From a virus (Duplodnaviria > Caudoviricetes): a stretch of 64,000 bases of DNA. A program made the position numbers and the translations under genes. Position 1 is the stretch's first letter, and every line of letters starts with the position of its first letter. Positions 4,679-54,141 of the stretch are shown in pieces. The notes beneath the pieces are model-generated. The model did no database searches, was not told the origin of the DNA, and was given only the letters and a program-made list of their open reading frames with translations. The stretch lies in IMG/VR virus record IMGVR_UViG_3300020371_000002; one strand, given 5' to 3'.

Positions 4679-5842
4679 ATGACTGAATTAAATCAATCAG
4701 TATTAAGAGAACTGGCAACTTCAGCAAGAGCAGATATTATTGCGGTTCCTGAGGAAGGTCAAAGAATTGAGTGTGTAATCAATTCGGATACGATTGCTGA
4801 AGGCGATGGAATGGTCATGAGTGATGATGGATCATTAGTACCATCTGGAATTATTGGTAGTGGTCAGATCTCGAAATCAACTGATAACTTATTTTCGAGT
4901 GGATCCATCTCCATGGGTCAACTCAATAGCACATTCGGTGCGAGTAATTTAGGGAGTCTGTATAGAGGAAATAGGGTTCCCGACTGTCAATATAATAATA
5001 GTGTTCCTTCTGGTGGAACCATCAAATTCAGTGATTTTAGAGGAACTACTAAAACTATCTACGCTCAATGTAATGGTAACTTCAACCATTTACAGGCAAG
5101 ATGGGAAATCTTTGGAGATCAAGACTGGACTTCTGCAGCAGATAAAAGAATTACTTTTACTGGTCACTGTGGTTCCAGCGATTCTAATCCAGGCATGAGA
5201 ATTAATAACAGTGGTGCCTTATATGGTAATACTGTAGAGATGGTAACAGCAGGATCACCAAGCATTATCGGTAAAGGTGGAAATGCTGGTCAAGGTGGCA
5301 ATCAGGCGATGCATATTGCTACACCAATTAAGATTCCTGGCGGTTTCTGGAATGGAAGTGTTTATGGAGGCGGTGGCGGTGGCGGCACTGGCGGCAACGG
5401 AGGTCGTGGCGGCAACGGTCAACACGGCGGCAAAAAAAGATGTAATGGTTGGTTCTGTAATGGTTCTAAAAGAGAATGCCGTGGTGATGGTGGAAACGGT
5501 GGCAATGGCGGCAATGGCGGCGGAGGCGGAAGAGGAGCAGGTTTTATTTGGAACGGATCCTCTTGGGTGAACTCTCAGACAGGCGGCAGTGGCGGCAACA
5601 GTGGTAACTCTGGAAACGGTAGAGCAGGCAACGGTGGCAATGGCGGTAATGGCGGCGGAGGCGGCGGTTACCAGTCCACTGGCGGATCAGGCGGCGGTGG
5701 AAACAGAGGAAACCGTGGCGGCAATGGAGAGTCAGGTTGCGGCGGTGGTCCCAACAATGGAAATAATGGAAACGGTGGAGGCGGCGGCGCAGGTGGCGGT
5801 CCTAAAGCAAACTTCTCACACAATGGTTATCGTTACGGTTAA
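4679..5842 (+). CDS. glycine-rich tail-fibre tip adhesin (T-even gp38-like)
   Basis: LGSLYRG...VPSGGTIKFSDFRG N-terminal motif and repeated GGxGGxGG tracts separated by variable loops. Confidence 0.7.
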   Translation: MTELNQSVLRELATSARADIIAVPEEGQRIECVINSDTIAEGDGMVMSDDGSLVPSGIIGSGQISKSTDNLFSSGSISMGQLNSTFGASNLGSLYRGNRVPDCQYNNSVPSGGTIKFSDFRGTTKTIYAQCNGNFNHLQARWEIFGDQDWTSAADKRITFTGHCGSSDSNPGMRINNSGALYGNTVEMVTAGSPSIIGKGGNAGQGGNQAMHIATPIKIPGGFWNGSVYGGGGGGGTGGNGGRGGNGQHGGKKRCNGWFCNGSKRECRGDGGNGGNGGNGGGGGRGAGFIWNGSSWVNSQTGGSGGNSGNSGNGRAGNGGNGGNGGGGGGYQSTGGSGGGGNRGNRGGNGESGCGGGPNNGNNGNGGGGGAGGGPKANFSHNGYRYG

Positions 5843-16344: not shown

Positions 16345-18015
16345 TCACTTGGCAACTAAGTTATAACTTGGAAACCACACATAATCTAGGTTTGATCCGT
16401 GCAATGTTCGGAGGGCTTCGTCGGGCGTTTCAACCAGGGGTTCACCAGCCAAATTAAAGCTAGTATTAAGAAGAATCCCAATACCTCGGCGAGATTTGAT
16501 CTCTGTGAGGAGTTCATAAAGTAAATGCCCTTCTCTAACAGTTTGGATTCTGCAGGACCCATCTTCATGGACAATGCCTTGAAAAGTAAGTCTCCACTCC
16601 TCCTTAATTTGAAAAGAGTTTGTCATAAACTCATTTCTCTCTAAGTATAACATATCAAAACATGTTTTGGCATCTTCTTCCAGAATAATTGCCGCAAAGG
16701 GACGATACCATTCACGTTTCTTAATCTCATTAACTATATCCTTCGCAGAAGGATTAAAAGCATTAAAGAGAATAGATCTGTTACCTAATGCACGTTGTCC
16801 TGCTTCTGCTTTACCATAATATACTGCAACTGATTTATCATTATCCAAGAGATCAGCAACACCAGAGGTATCATACTGCCAATCAGATCCCTCTTTCATA
16901 CTAAAATATACATCTTCTAGATCATAATCATATCCATGAAAGAAAGTATCTTTGAGTGGATACTTATTCGTATCACCAGTTTCATTCTTATATGAATAGA
17001 TACAGGCACCAATAGAGTTGCCAGTATCATCTGCAATCGGTTCAAACCAAAACTTACATTCGGGCATCAACTGTACGAGGTAAGAATTGGTAACAATATT
17101 CATCCCATAACCACCAGTTACGATGATATTTTTAATACCTGTTTTAGTAGAATAGTAATCAATACATTTGAAGACTTCTTCCTGAGTCTGATTCTGTACA
17201 TGCTTGGCATAATCTGCATGTAGAGTATCTTCGAATGTAACCTCGTTTGTGGTATATTCATGAAGTTCTCTATTCATTACTGGTTTTACATGGGATCTAG
17301 CATAATTATCCAGATCAAAATATGAATCATGAGGAACTAGGAATACATCGGGGTCTAGACAGTTCACAAATAGGTCAGGAAACCCCTCTGGATGACCGTA
17401 GGCAGAGAGTCCCATAGTCTTTCCATTCTCTAGTGGGTGTTCGCCAATCAACGTTGTGGCGGACTCATAGACCATAGTGGCATTGAACTTACTACGAACA
17501 ATATGTTTCGTCTCTGGTCTAACTTGTTTCAGATACTCTAAAACTTCTTGAATCTGATGTGATGAAAAGTCTGACCAATAGTTTTTATAGATTTCTGTGA
17601 ACGTATATGGATCTCTGCGAGCAACCATAACAGTCTCCGACTCGCGACAAACGCCACCAATCTTAGATCCATTCCTATCAGCAACAAAGATAAGTGCCTC
17701 ATCAAAACCACTGTTCTCAAATGCCAGTGCAGCATGACTCATGTGATGATACTCGTCCATATCAATCACTGGACACTTAAATAATCTTTCCGCAAGAAGA
17801 TCGACACTGAATATACTCCTACCGTCTGGAGAGGCAATAACACAAAGATCCACAGGACCCATAAGTGTCTTTTGTGCCTCAATCATGGCAAGATATGGTT
17901 TAGACTCTTTCTTAATACCACAGAGTCTCTCTTCTTTAAAGAAATATTCTATTTCCCCATCATTATAAACACAGACCGATGAATCATGACTCGGACTGAT
18001 ACCAACAATTCTCAT
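16345..18015 (-). CDS. carbamoyltransferase (NodU/CmcH/TobZ family)
   Basis: GISPSHDSS...EERL, HHMSHA, GKTMGLSAYG, EAGQRALGNRSIL, KKREWYRPFA, LLNTSFN. Confidence 0.92.
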   Translation of the reverse strand: MRIVGISPSHDSSVCVYNDGEIEYFFKEERLCGIKKESKPYLAMIEAQKTLMGPVDLCVIASPDGRSIFSVDLLAERLFKCPVIDMDEYHHMSHAALAFENSGFDEALIFVADRNGSKIGGVCRESETVMVARRDPYTFTEIYKNYWSDFSSHQIQEVLEYLKQVRPETKHIVRSKFNATMVYESATTLIGEHPLENGKTMGLSAYGHPEGFPDLFVNCLDPDVFLVPHDSYFDLDNYARSHVKPVMNRELHEYTTNEVTFEDTLHADYAKHVQNQTQEEVFKCIDYYSTKTGIKNIIVTGGYGMNIVTNSYLVQLMPECKFWFEPIADDTGNSIGACIYSYKNETGDTNKYPLKDTFFHGYDYDLEDVYFSMKEGSDWQYDTSGVADLLDNDKSVAVYYGKAEAGQRALGNRSILFNAFNPSAKDIVNEIKKREWYRPFAAIILEEDAKTCFDMLYLERNEFMTNSFQIKEEWRLTFQGIVHEDGSCRIQTVREGHLLYELLTEIKSRRGIGILLNTSFNLAGEPLVETPDEALRTLHGSNLDYVWFPSYNLVAK

Positions 18016-18515
18016 TAATTATCGCCCCATATTTGGATAGTATAACGCATATTCTTGGGGTTAGGCGAAACTGGTGTAACACAATGCCATTCCTTACTAT
18101 GATTTATCATCATTAAATTCCTTTGTGGAGGAATGGCTTTCCATATCTCATCATCACCTTCTTTCCACAAGAACCAACCACCATCAGTACGATCCCACTT
18201 CTCATTCAAATAGATCGTAGCACCAAATTTATGTGCTTTATCTGTATGTGGAGGAATACCCGTTAATGGTTGCCAAATATAAAATCTAAGTTGGTAATGT
18301 TCACACTTAGGAATATGTTCTTTAATACAGTCAAGAACTCTAGTTGATAGTTCAGGTGACAATTTAGTGGCAAGTGTGGTTCCTAACTCCAGTTTAACTT
18401 CTTCAGACCAGTTAATTGTACTGGATGACCACACTTCATCACGGAGTTTATCCTGTAATTCTCTCTTACAGTCAACCCAAACTAATTCATTAAGAGCGTC
18501 TTTTACTATCTTCAT
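18015..18515 (-). CDS. 2OG-Fe(II) oxygenase
   Basis: PPHTD...TIYLN...GGWF...WHCVTPV...RYTIQIW. Confidence 0.85.
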   Translation of the reverse strand: MKIVKDALNELVWVDCKRELQDKLRDEVWSSSTINWSEEVKLELGTTLATKLSPELSTRVLDCIKEHIPKCEHYQLRFYIWQPLTGIPPHTDKAHKFGATIYLNEKWDRTDGGWFLWKEGDDEIWKAIPPQRNLMMINHSKEWHCVTPVSPNPKNMRYTIQIWGDN

Positions 18516-18530
18516 CGTCCCATATAGATA

Positions 18531-18603
18531 TGGAGAATAGGGGACTCGAACCCCTAACCCCCTGCTTGCAAAGCAGGTGCTCTACCAATTGAGCTAATTC
18601 CCC
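18531..18603 (-). tRNA. trnA: tRNA-Ala(UGC)
   Basis: GGGGAATTAGCTCAATTGGTAGAGCACCTGCTTTGCAAGCAGGGGGTTAGGGGTTCGAGTCCCCTATTCTCCA. Confidence 0.97.
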
Positions 18604-18791
18604 TCGTTTTCCCTCTTTTCTTTAGCTTCAAGAATATACTCAACAGTGTTCGCAACATCATCCATGGCATCACGAAGCATCGGTTGTTGACCAGAGTGTT
18701 GTTCTCTGTATGTAACACCGTTTTTAAATTCTTCGCAAAGAGTCCATCGCCATTGCAACATACTCTTAGAATACCATAGATTAATCTTCAT
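18594..18791 (-). CDS. conserved cyanophage hypothetical protein
   Basis: MKINLWYSKSMLQWRWTL. Confidence 0.7.
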   Translation of the reverse strand: MKINLWYSKSMLQWRWTLCEEFKNGVTYREQHSGQQPMLRDAMDDVANTVEYILEAKEKRENEGN

Positions 18792-18805
18792 AATACTCCT
18801 GAGTA

Positions 18806-19072
18806 AGGGGGCATTACACCCCCAAGGACTACTTGGGTAAGAAGGCTAGTCTAACCCCCATCTCCCATTCAGGCAGTCGCGAGTTCACGAGTGCGGGAGA
18901 ATGCTACGATGTTGTTCGCAGCGACATCAGATGGTTTAGCATCTATTGGTTGCTTATCCAAGCAGGTTTCAGTCATGCCCCTTGTACCCCGTCGAAGCCA
19001 GTGCGACCCCATGAGTGGAGTCGAGGGGAATCGAACCCCTGTCCGAAATGTAGGTTGCATCACCTATTCCAC
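18806..19072 (-). ncRNA. ssrA: circularly permuted (two-piece) tmRNA
   Basis: Acceptor piece ...TTTCGGACAGGGGTTCGATTCCCCTCGACTCCA (ends 19016), 5-nt spacer, coding piece GGGGTCGCACTGGCTTCGACGGGG (starts 19010); 7-bp acceptor stem with G3:U70; tag frame 18919-18869 ANNIVAFSRTRELATA. Outer ends approximate. Confidence 0.92.
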
Positions 19073-19082
19073 AAAAGTGGAA

Positions 19083-19156
19083 AGCCACATGTCGGACTTG
19101 AACCGACGACCTACGGTTTACAAAACCGTTGCTCTATCCAGCTGAGCTAAAGTGGC
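19083..19156 (-). tRNA. trnT: tRNA-Thr(UGU)
   Basis: GCCACTTTAGCTCAGCTGGATAGAGCAACGGTTTTGTAAACCGTAGGTCGTCGGTTCAAGTCCGACATGTGGCT. Confidence 0.96.
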
Positions 19157-19171: not shown

Positions 19172-19173
19172 AG

Positions 19174-19256
19174 TAGGAGTGGGGGGACTTGAACCCCCAC
19201 GCCCAGAGGGCAACAGATTTTAAGTCTGGTGTGTCTACCGATTCCACCACACTCCC
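19174..19256 (-). tRNA. trnL: tRNA-Leu(UAA)
   Basis: GGGAGTGTGGTGGAATCGGTAGACACACCAGACTTAAAATCTG..., long variable arm, GGTTCAAGTCC. Confidence 0.96.
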
Positions 19257-19261
19257 GATAC

Positions 19262-19438
19262 TCAGGGTGTGAAAACTAATTCACCATTTTGACAATGGGT
19301 ACGGCAAACATCTAGTACAGCAAGAAATTGATCAGAATCTTCGCAGTGCATCACTTTGGTATCACCTTCGTTTGAATGTAGATAGAAGGCCTTGCGTTCG
19401 ATGTCAGCGACGACTCGTGAGAGAAACTCTTCGTTCAT
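19262..19438 (-). CDS. conserved cyanophage hypothetical protein, 58 aa (not in track)
   Basis: MNEEFLSRVVADIERKAFYLHSNEGDTKVMHCED... Confidence 0.7.
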   Translation of the reverse strand: MNEEFLSRVVADIERKAFYLHSNEGDTKVMHCEDSDQFLAVLDVCRTHCQNGELVFTP

Positions 19439-19462
19439 TGGAGTAGTGTCTTGAACTCTCTT

Positions 19463-19491
19463 AATATAGGGTATTTTGGGGGTTTCGTCAA
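19463..19491 (-). promoter_or_regulatory. sigma70-like promoter TTGACG-17-TATATT
   Basis: exact 17-nt spacer. Confidence 0.75.
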
Positions 19492-19513
19492 GGGGTCAAT
19501 CCACGAACTGTCC

Positions 19514-19669
19514 CTATTTACCTACGCCGTAGTCCCCCTTCTCCTTGCCTGTCTCGGCTTCCAACTCACGAATGTCTGCGTGAAGACGTTCTACAGCAGC
19601 ACGAACCTCATCGGTCTCTTCCCATTCCCATGTATTACCTTTACTGTCAACAAATTGTCTATTAGTCAT
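19514..19669 (-). CDS. hypothetical protein, 51 aa (not in track)
   Basis: MTNRQFVDSKGNTWEWEETDEVRAAVERL... Confidence 0.65.
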   Translation of the reverse strand: MTNRQFVDSKGNTWEWEETDEVRAAVERLHADIRELEAETGKEKGDYGVGK

Positions 19670-19902
19670 ACGATTAATCCCTTTTCTTTCATGTAGTGTA
19701 GTGTTTCTTTCATGCTTCCAATATGTTTGGAACCAATACTAACCTGTGGATATGTAGCGTCACCACCAAACTCCTGTTCAAATTGAGTTTTTGTGAAGTG
19801 TTGATCTAATTTGTATTCGTGAAATTCTCCACCAAGTGATTTGAGCAACATGGATATGCGCTCACATTCTTGGCTTCCGTTACTGTAAATTACCGCTATC
19901 AT
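19666..19902 (-). CDS. glutaredoxin-like protein lacking CxxC
   Basis: IYSNGSQECER...ATYPQVSIGSKHIG thioredoxin-fold pattern. Confidence 0.8.
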   Translation of the reverse strand: MIAVIYSNGSQECERISMLLKSLGGEFHEYKLDQHFTKTQFEQEFGGDATYPQVSIGSKHIGSMKETLHYMKEKGLIV

Positions 19903-53984: not shown

Positions 53985-54105
53985 ATAAGAATAAGTAAGA
54001 CCATCAGGGAAATGGTGGAGTTACTATTCCTCTGCGCCCTAGGCAGAGGTATGAGAGACTGTTCTTTAGACACGCTGTTTAGTCTCGGTCAGGCGTGTTT
54101 ACAAC
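53985..54105 (-). ncRNA. PhotoRC-II-like structured psbA leader
   Basis: GACCGAGAC...GTCTC, CCTCTGC/GCAGAGG and ACCAT/ATGGT stems ending CCCTGATGGTCTTACTT, as recalled for cyanophage psbA 5' UTRs. Confidence 0.6.
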
Positions 54106-54141
54106 CAGTTAAAGAACTTTACATTCCGTAACGTGTTGATG

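Follow-up and report, generated by a model that had tools for sequence, protein, structure and literature searches.

The window, the whole 64,000-nucleotide stretch of viral DNA analysed here (IMG/VR record IMGVR_UViG_3300020371_000002), carries on its minus strand a cluster of RNA genes into which a predicted circularly permuted tmRNA gene is set. Along that strand the order is a DUF7294 ORF, tRNA-Leu(taa), tRNA-Thr(tgt), the tmRNA, a 65-aa ORF, tRNA-Ala(tgc), a 2OG-Fe(II) oxygenase and a carbamoyltransferase. The cluster opens with tRNA-Leu(taa) at 19173–19256 (ARAGORN; Rfam tRNA, 58.1 bits), followed by tRNA-Thr(tgt) at 19083–19156 (ARAGORN), the 3' end of which adjoins the tmRNA leader, and its last RNA gene is tRNA-Ala(tgc) at 18531–18603 (ARAGORN and Rfam). 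Directly 3' of the tmRNA, the 65-aa ORF occupies 18594–18791 on the same strand and is preceded by an AGGAG ribosome-binding site that starts a few bases past the terminal hairpin of the tmRNA. The DNA of the window matched cyanophage records only, these being T4-like Synechococcus phages, and it contains a PhotoRC-II motif; the tmRNA sits in a bona fide phage genome, that of a T4-like Synechococcus myovirus. Promoter-like sites occurred at chance level (5 found versus 4.8 expected), a scan for terminator-like sites returned none, and Rfam detected no riboswitch near the tmRNA in the window.

ARAGORN predicted a permuted tmRNA (tmRNA*) at 18778–19105 on the minus strand. The Rfam family RF01851 (cyano_tmRNA) matched 18808–19098 over model positions 1–288 of 288, with a score of 145.5 bits (gathering score 70) and an E-value of 1e-39, and in the Rfam search of the window RF04321 (tmRNA_permuted) scored 86.4 bits on the same gene (gathering score 47). 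Both scores are far beyond chance expectation. ARAGORN and the cyano_tmRNA model were among the checks proposed in the original prediction, which had placed a phage-encoded permuted tmRNA within the tRNA cluster, and both were positive. The gene order is permuted: the T arm and the 3' strand of the acceptor stem come first, and the 5' strand of that stem follows after a 5-nt spacer. The outer bounds of the ARAGORN and RF01851 calls are too wide for the tmRNA precursor; because tRNA-Thr ends at 19083, the start of the precursor was placed at the leader hairpin at 19067–19082. With the covariation and tag coding constraint described below also bearing the prediction out, the gene is almost certainly a genuine circularly permuted ("two-piece") cyanobacterial-type tmRNA (ssrA) gene in a phage.

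Read 5' to 3' on the minus strand, the precursor of the acceptor piece would begin with the leader hairpin TTCCAC-TTTT-GTGGAA, which is the first hairpin of RF01851 and is weakly conserved (61% paired across viral copies). The core of the acceptor piece, delimited at 19016–19064 from the sequence, RF01851 and script-checked coordinates, is made up of the 5' strand of helix P2 (19044–19064), the T arm and loop (19024–19040), the acceptor 3' strand CGACTCC (19017–19023) and the discriminator A (A73, 19016). CCA is not encoded, the discriminator being followed by the intervening spacer CTCAT (19011–19015), which at 5 nt is within the range of host spacers (5 to 30 nt; commonest, 6 nt). The 5' end of the coding piece (18971–19010) comprises the acceptor 5' strand GGGGTCG (19004–19010), whose G3 pairs with U70, the D-loop analogue CACTGGCTTCGA and the 3' strand of P2 (18971–18991). 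All of the minus-strand motifs named in the original prediction, namely the tRNA-like 3' half, the CTCAT spacer and the 5' end, were located at script-verified coordinates, and the GGGGUCG/CGACUCC pairing and the P2 helix joining the two pieces, which it had also proposed, are present in the window.

Downstream of P2 the coding piece has a hairpin, GCTT-GGAT-AAGC (18952–18963), at a site that reads GCTC/GAGC in hosts and TTGTT/AACAA in the S-CAM1 type. A pseudoknot between the GG of this hairpin loop and a downstream CC was considered and rejected, as it is not conserved across all viral types. There follow a phage-specific 21-nt in-frame insert, GCT AAA CCA TCT GAT GTC GCT (18920–18940), with a hairpin AGATG-N6-CATCT in the insert region (18929–18944), and the tag frame common to hosts, which encodes ANNIVAFSRTRELATA and then TGA (18869–18919). 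The 3' domain of the coding piece (18807–18859, from the RF01851 alignment) contains a hairpin GGGGGT/GCCTTC (18841–18859; 84% paired in viral copies) and a terminal G+C hairpin (18807–18823; 93% paired). This last element had been described as terminator-like, a description that does not hold, as the hairpin corresponds to the terminal helix conserved in the family model, is without a U tract and drew no terminator call.

Homologues of the window tmRNA were found in 15 phage records by blastn, a comparison that the original prediction had proposed. The nearest record used, G001, is an IMG/VR contig of 148,698 bp whose tmRNA has 99% identity to the window copy and scores 146.9 bits; isolate phages were used alongside it. 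The homologue in Sf-FS3 has 87.6% identity over 99% of the query (about 87% over 325 nt), those in S-CAM1 and S-CAM3 have about 75% identity, and those in S-SSM7 and S-SSM6a have 81% identity over about half of the query. Homologues in Sf-FS3, S-SSM7, S-CAM1, G001 and an IMG/VR contig scored 109–159 bits, all above the Rfam gathering score. In total, blastn and pattern scans of IMG/VR yielded cyanobacterial-type permuted tmRNAs in 58 viral loci, representing 42 distinct sequences; since a generic T-arm/acceptor pattern matched many unrelated tmRNAs in IMG/VR, more specific patterns were used for these scans.

Among the GenBank records checked, none has a tmRNA annotated at the homologue. In Sf-FS3 and the S-CAM1 reference genome the homologous stretch is mostly or wholly unannotated, and in S-SSM7 and several S-CAM1 and S-CAM3 records it is covered by a "hypothetical protein" CDS, the kind of mis-annotation that had been anticipated for this gene. 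The corresponding open frame of the window, a 64-aa ORF at 18869–19063, exists as predicted and has a GTG start, so that a protein-coding gene might be read here in place of an RNA gene. This reading has a negligible probability: the ORF is without a Pfam match and just crosses the tRNA-like domain in the reading frame of the tag, conservation upstream of the tag tracks RNA base pairs and not codons, and the covariance-model E-value stands at 1e-39. Pipelines for phage annotation should include ARAGORN or the Rfam models for permuted tmRNAs, given that the gene is missing or mis-annotated in the records checked.

MAFFT alignments of the 42 distinct viral sequences were scored for covariation with a script. 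Pairing was complete (100%) in the acceptor stem and the T arm, with compensatory changes in 2 of 7 and 3 of 5 pairs, respectively, and P2a was 99.6% paired, with compensatory changes in 3 of its 6 pairs; P2b-d were 84–89% paired, compensatory changes being present in 8 of the 16 P2 pairs. When the 3' partner was slid by 1–2 columns as a control, pairing in the acceptor stem, T arm and P2a dropped to 41–79%. RNAalifold recovered the same helices from eight sequences. All 42 viral copies have G3:U70 and the TCCA end, and the T loop and the D-loop analogue show little or no variation. The tag frame is likewise constrained. The lengths of the viral tag frames (45, 51, 69 or 75 nt) differ by whole codons, and every one of the 42 frames is closed by a stop. 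Variable tag sites fell by codon position as 4/3/13, 6/8/14 and 10/4/12, mostly at third positions, counts that are indicative and carry no formal test because the tag length classes pool different tag families. Replacements in the tag are often conservative (I/L/V/M, D/E). As the stems stay paired through compensatory changes and the tag is under coding constraint, the gene appears to be under selection as a working tmRNA. This is the pattern that a translated tag on a functional structured RNA should show, unlike that of a decaying passenger or a pure decoy.

The arrangement of tRNA-Thr, tmRNA and small ORF in the window is also found in the complete genome of the isolate Sf-FS3 and in IMG/VR contigs. 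Across the 58 viral loci, tRNA genes adjoin the tmRNA on the same strand in 38, tRNA-Thr(tgt) lies directly upstream of it in 21 and the 65-aa ORF directly follows it in 24; tmRNAs of the S-SSM7 type are mostly without nearby tRNAs. The 65-aa ORF was considered as a partner of the tmRNA and rejected, as 79 phage records contain it and, of these, the three checked (S-SKS1, SynMITS9220M01 and S-SM2) have no adjoining tmRNA. SynMITS9220M01 and S-SM2 show an "empty site", in which the small ORF comes directly after tRNA-Leu and tRNA-Thr and the tmRNA is absent. On the basis of these empty sites, the tmRNA can be regarded as a cassette that is present or absent at a syntenic position within a hypervariable island upstream of the fibre gene. 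Such presence or absence, together with the large number of host-derived genes in cyanophages, would be in keeping with a passenger, that is, a host ssrA copy that was gained by recombination in the tRNA island, brings the phage no benefit and has yet to decay.

The relationship of the viral copies to host genes argues against this. In a maximum-likelihood tree of the 42 viral sequences and 114 host sequences (from Prochlorococcus, marine and freshwater Synechococcus, Cyanobium and Vulcanococcus), which is unrooted and for which host and viral sequences were gathered with different patterns, one branch of length 1.05 splits all viral from all host sequences with SH-aLRT support of 100. The viral tmRNAs fall outside the cellular Prochlorococcus / Synechococcus / Cyanobium ssrA clade, and the window copy lies in a sub-clade with Sf-FS3 and IMG/VR contigs. 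A search of 401 host-family genomes found no near copy, the best match having 81% identity over 114 nt and full-length matches 67–69%. In addition, the phage copies are only 75–87% identical to one another, yet their stems remain paired, and they have in common features seen only in phages (the 21-nt insert and the tag ends). A useless passenger is therefore improbable. An integration-site remnant, in which a phage attP would duplicate part of host ssrA as in temperate phages and islands, has a still smaller probability. tmRNA genes are common integration targets (PMC4131195, PMC4383910), but here the whole gene is present and not one end of it, it has only 67–81% identity to any host ssrA searched, its relatives are T4-like lytic myoviruses, and a tyrosine integrase (PF00589) was not found in five related phage records. 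Judged by sequence comparison, the window tmRNA is a homologue of the cyanobacterial permuted family within a virus-only lineage. The data are consistent with an old capture and later spread from phage to phage, a single capture not being proven.

The tags of the two groups differ mainly in their ends. Host tags are near-uniform, AN(N/K)IV(R/S/A)FSRQ(T/A/P/S)APVAA, with 16 residues and -VAA in 113 of 114. Viral tags retain the ANNIVAFSR core and their tails diverge: the window tag has the core and a stop and ends in -ATA, with the tail TRELATA in the window, G001 and Sf-FS3, and other viral tails are STVAA (S-CAM1 type), ILTREFARTDELVTA (S-SSM7 type) and FRRTAVAV (another type). Among the 42 distinct viral sequences the last three tag residues are VAA in 18, ATA in 8, VTA in 8, VAV in 6, and VVA and VPA in 1 each.

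The tag had originally been read as GCG AAC AAC ATC and onward to TGA. The frame stands, at 18869–18919, and the resume codon is the uncertain part of that reading, as ARAGORN places it at GCT 18938–18940, 21 nt upstream of GCG 18917–18919 and in the same frame. With the insert, the tag would be AKPSDVA followed by ANNIVAFSRTRELATA, 23 aa in all. In 102 of 105 host sequences 33 nt separate the end of P2 (TGAA) from the resume codon, and in L250, a viral type that lacks the insert, the gap is 31 nt; in the window a near-identical 31-nt stretch leads to GCT, and GCG lies 21 nt further on. From this spacing in hosts and L250, the upstream GCT is the positional homologue of the host resume codon, and the 21 nt are an in-frame insert at the ancestral resume position. 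In E. coli tmRNA the A at position -4 is a key base for setting the frame; GCT is preceded by TAGAT, with A at -4, and GCG by TCGCT, without that A. Of the two, GCT is the somewhat likelier resume codon and GCG a close second. The exact hairpin AGATG-N6-CATCT occurs in 32 of the 42 viral copies and in none of the 114 host copies, and although one viral search pattern demanded its sequence, loci from an unrelated pattern carry it too. It invariably ends 9 nt ahead of GCG.

A more far-reaching reading is that cyanophage tmRNAs form an old virus-only lineage with a remodelled tag. Its start would have gained seven residues (AK[PTS]SD[VTS]A) from the 21-nt insert, which also folds into a hairpin about the resume codon, and its end would have become -ATA, -VTA or -VAV in place of -VAA. 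We regard this as speculative and rather unlikely. If true, the phage would change what becomes of tagged proteins in the infected cell, beyond topping up host tmRNA; ribosomes might, for instance, be freed while the tagged products are kept from ClpXP or are directed to another protease or adaptor.

Searches for SmpB (PF01668) found none in G001, G002 (CheckV-complete), Sf-FS3, S-SSM7 or S-CAM1, with control genomes positive. As these five related phage genomes have no smpB, host SmpB is presumably used, and as CCA is not encoded, the RNA would rely on host 3' trimming and the host CCA-adding enzyme; the use of host SmpB, AlaRS and RNase P put forward in the original prediction is supported to this extent. 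The absence of SmpB from these relatives, along with phage tag ends unlike those of the host, would also suit a decoy or competitor, an RNA that binds host SmpB, AlaRS or ribosomes and blocks or diverts host trans-translation. Such a role has been proposed for the minimal tRNA-like tmRNA of mycobacteriophage DS6A (PMC4131195), and inhibition of tmRNA by a molecule resembling the tRNA-like domain of DS6A is reported, with titration of SmpB as a possible cause (Hudson et al. 2014, PMC4131195). A decoy has no need of a tag frame, yet the frame is open in 42 of 42 copies, changes length by whole codons and varies mainly at third positions, and the whole coding piece is conserved, 3' helices included. 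We therefore consider a decoy role improbable and trans-translation during infection likely.

Evidence of expression was sought in public RNA data. In two small marine metatranscriptomes from one study, contigs 97–98% identical to the window aligned at 18819–18978 and 18857–19010, inside the coding piece, and no contigs from these two sets fell on 3 kb of flanking ORFs. Two differences common to the contigs lie in the tag and are synonymous third-position changes (TCC to TCT and CGT to CGC). These matches are suggestive only of a coding piece that accumulates as a stable RNA in the sea, being assembled contigs that are silent on ends, strand, processing and level. The alignment of one contig stops at 19010, the predicted RNase P site, with three further letters unaligned, and no conclusion is drawn from it. 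Other RNA runs were uninformative, matching mainly conserved tRNA parts from other organisms, and one run labelled "viral metagenome RNA-Seq" extends over ORFs as well and could be DNA.

We infer the steps of transcription, processing, charging and benefit to the phage as follows. The tmRNA would be co-transcribed with the flanking tRNAs and cleaved by host RNase P 5' of the G at 19010, after which the CTCAT spacer would be trimmed and the discriminator A at 19016 extended by the host CCA-adding enzyme. The acceptor piece would measure roughly 70 nt and the coding piece roughly 200 nt, with the acceptor stem and P2 joining the two. Host AlaRS would charge the RNA with alanine through G3:U70, and host SmpB and EF-Tu would bring it to ribosomes that have stalled on broken mRNAs, expected to abound once the phage degrades host RNA. 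Translation would resume on the tag frame and stop at TGA 18869–18871, leaving freed ribosomes and tagged products ending in -LATA.

Permuted tmRNAs in cyanophages have been listed before, and the supposition that none had been described does not stand. In a survey by Buchholz et al. (2022), ARAGORN was run on 18,146 phage genomes and gave 53 two-piece tmRNAs, with marine or aquatic phages accounting for 50; the "Permuted" entries of its Table S1 include six Synechococcus phages, S-CBWM1, S-CAM1, S-CAM3, S-CRM01, S-SSM7 and S-SSM6a, as well as a marine virus, AG-345-P14, there attributed to Prochlorococcus (PMC9004378). S-CAM1, S-CAM3, S-SSM7 and S-SSM6a carry direct homologues of the window gene, with 75–81% identity and the same insert and tag core. 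The Table S1 cyanophage entries are, however, ARAGORN calls in a survey table, with structure, tag and evolution undescribed there (PMC9004378), and the window copy belongs to another sub-clade, with the tail TRELATA. Earlier, a 2014 tmRNA census had only mycobacteriophages and Bacillus phage G (PMC4131195), and a 2025 tmRNA database counts 79 phage sequences. We found no published account of the cyanophage tmRNAs in their own right, be it on their structure or tag, their lineage or their expression. Any novelty may lie in the details, namely a lineage confined to viruses, the insert in frame at the resume position and tag ends that depart from those of hosts.

The closest known system is the two-piece tmRNA of the hosts (RF01851; marine Synechococcus, Prochlorococcus and Cyanobium; Gaudin et al. 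2002, as summarised in PMC1242208), which has the same permuted gene order and whose two-piece maturation was confirmed by Northern blot in Prochlorococcus (PMC1242208). Both have an acceptor stem with G3:U70 and A73, the T loop, P2, the post-P2 hairpin and the 3' helices, both have the tag core ANNIV.FSR, and CCA is encoded in neither. The window gene differs in being encoded by a virus, on the viral side of the fully supported split, in its 21-nt insert and hairpin, absent from all hosts, in its tail TRELATA as against host Q(A/T)APVAA, and in being flanked by tRNAs, whereas the host gene stands alone. Among marine T4-like myoviruses, OM43 phage Melnitz and pelagimyophages also carry a permuted ssrA, and a phage smpB is not reported there; upkeep of the hijacked translation machinery or the tagging of proteins has been proposed as its role (PMC9004378). 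Melnitz, however, has the alphaproteobacterial type and a glutamine riboswitch, whereas the gene of the window is of the cyanobacterial type. Mycobacteriophages of the Bxz1 group and Bacillus phage G likewise have a phage tmRNA without phage SmpB, but these are one-piece tmRNAs of unpermuted order from phages of unrelated hosts (PMC4131195).

Overall, the window probably contains a functional permuted cyanobacterial-type ssrA in the tRNA island of a lytic T4-like Synechococcus myovirus. The hosts of marine cyanophages are some of the most abundant phototrophs of the ocean, and how these phages keep host ribosomes working while destroying host mRNA is poorly understood. A tmRNA kept under selection in many cyanomyoviruses, with tag variants of its own, suggests that ribosome rescue matters in infection, and the cyanophage tmRNA would offer a compact, testable handle on ribosome upkeep during infection.

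On the minus strand, the tmRNA is followed by a small open reading frame of 65 amino acids (18594-18791, minus strand), which begins 16 nt beyond the last helix of the tmRNA and overlaps the 5' end of the downstream tRNA-Ala by 10 nt. Its ribosome-binding site has the sequence AGGAG. A Pfam search with this protein returned no match. Across its homologues, eleven residues are invariant (W6, Y7, S8, W14, W16, T17, L18, S33, G34, R40 and D41), and a homologue comes after the tmRNA in 24 of the 58 viral loci carrying the permuted gene. The genes neighbouring the RNA cluster (16345-18515 and 19262-19902, both minus strand) encode a carbamoyltransferase (PF16861/PF02543), a 2OG-Fe(II) oxygenase, a DUF7294 protein and a glutaredoxin. 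Elsewhere in the window, a PhotoRC-II RNA motif (Rfam RF01717), a cyanophage element associated with photosynthesis genes, was detected at 54016-54111 on the minus strand with a score of 56.4 bits.

The viral tmRNA of two IMG/VR contigs (L003 and L010) belongs to a more distantly related type, whose tag reads AANKIVKFTR(Q/H)SAPVAV, and is set within large arrays of 10-22 tRNAs; here the homologue of the small open reading frame lies 1.3-3.1 kb from the tmRNA rather than adjacent to it. In the isolate Sf-FS3, ARAGORN placed an additional one-piece "tmRNA" (2176-2593 of the extracted locus, L124) adjoining the genuine permuted gene. This call is spurious, as it covers three real tRNA genes, and it serves as a warning for automated counts of phage tmRNAs. 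In S-CAM1 (locus L126), a wcaG RNA motif (RF01761, 83.5 bits) was observed at 5066-5162, approximately 2.3 kb downstream of the tmRNA. A permuted tmRNA of the Synechococcus/Cyanobium type was also present in contig CALRJS020000007.1, from a metagenome-assembled genome labelled Sphingobacterium thalpophilum; as this copy was placed within the cyanobacterial sequences of the tree, the contig is probably cyanobacterial and mis-binned.

Homologues of the 65-residue protein were also found in 79 cyanophage records, and none of the three examined for an adjacent tmRNA (S-SKS1, SynMITS9220M01 and S-SM2) had one. In SynMITS9220M01 and S-SM2, tRNA-Thr(tgt) is followed directly by the small open reading frame with no intervening tmRNA (1112-1371 in each extracted locus, L302 and L303, respectively). 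These empty-site alleles demonstrate that the tmRNA is an insertion/deletion polymorphism at a syntenic position upstream of the fibre gene.
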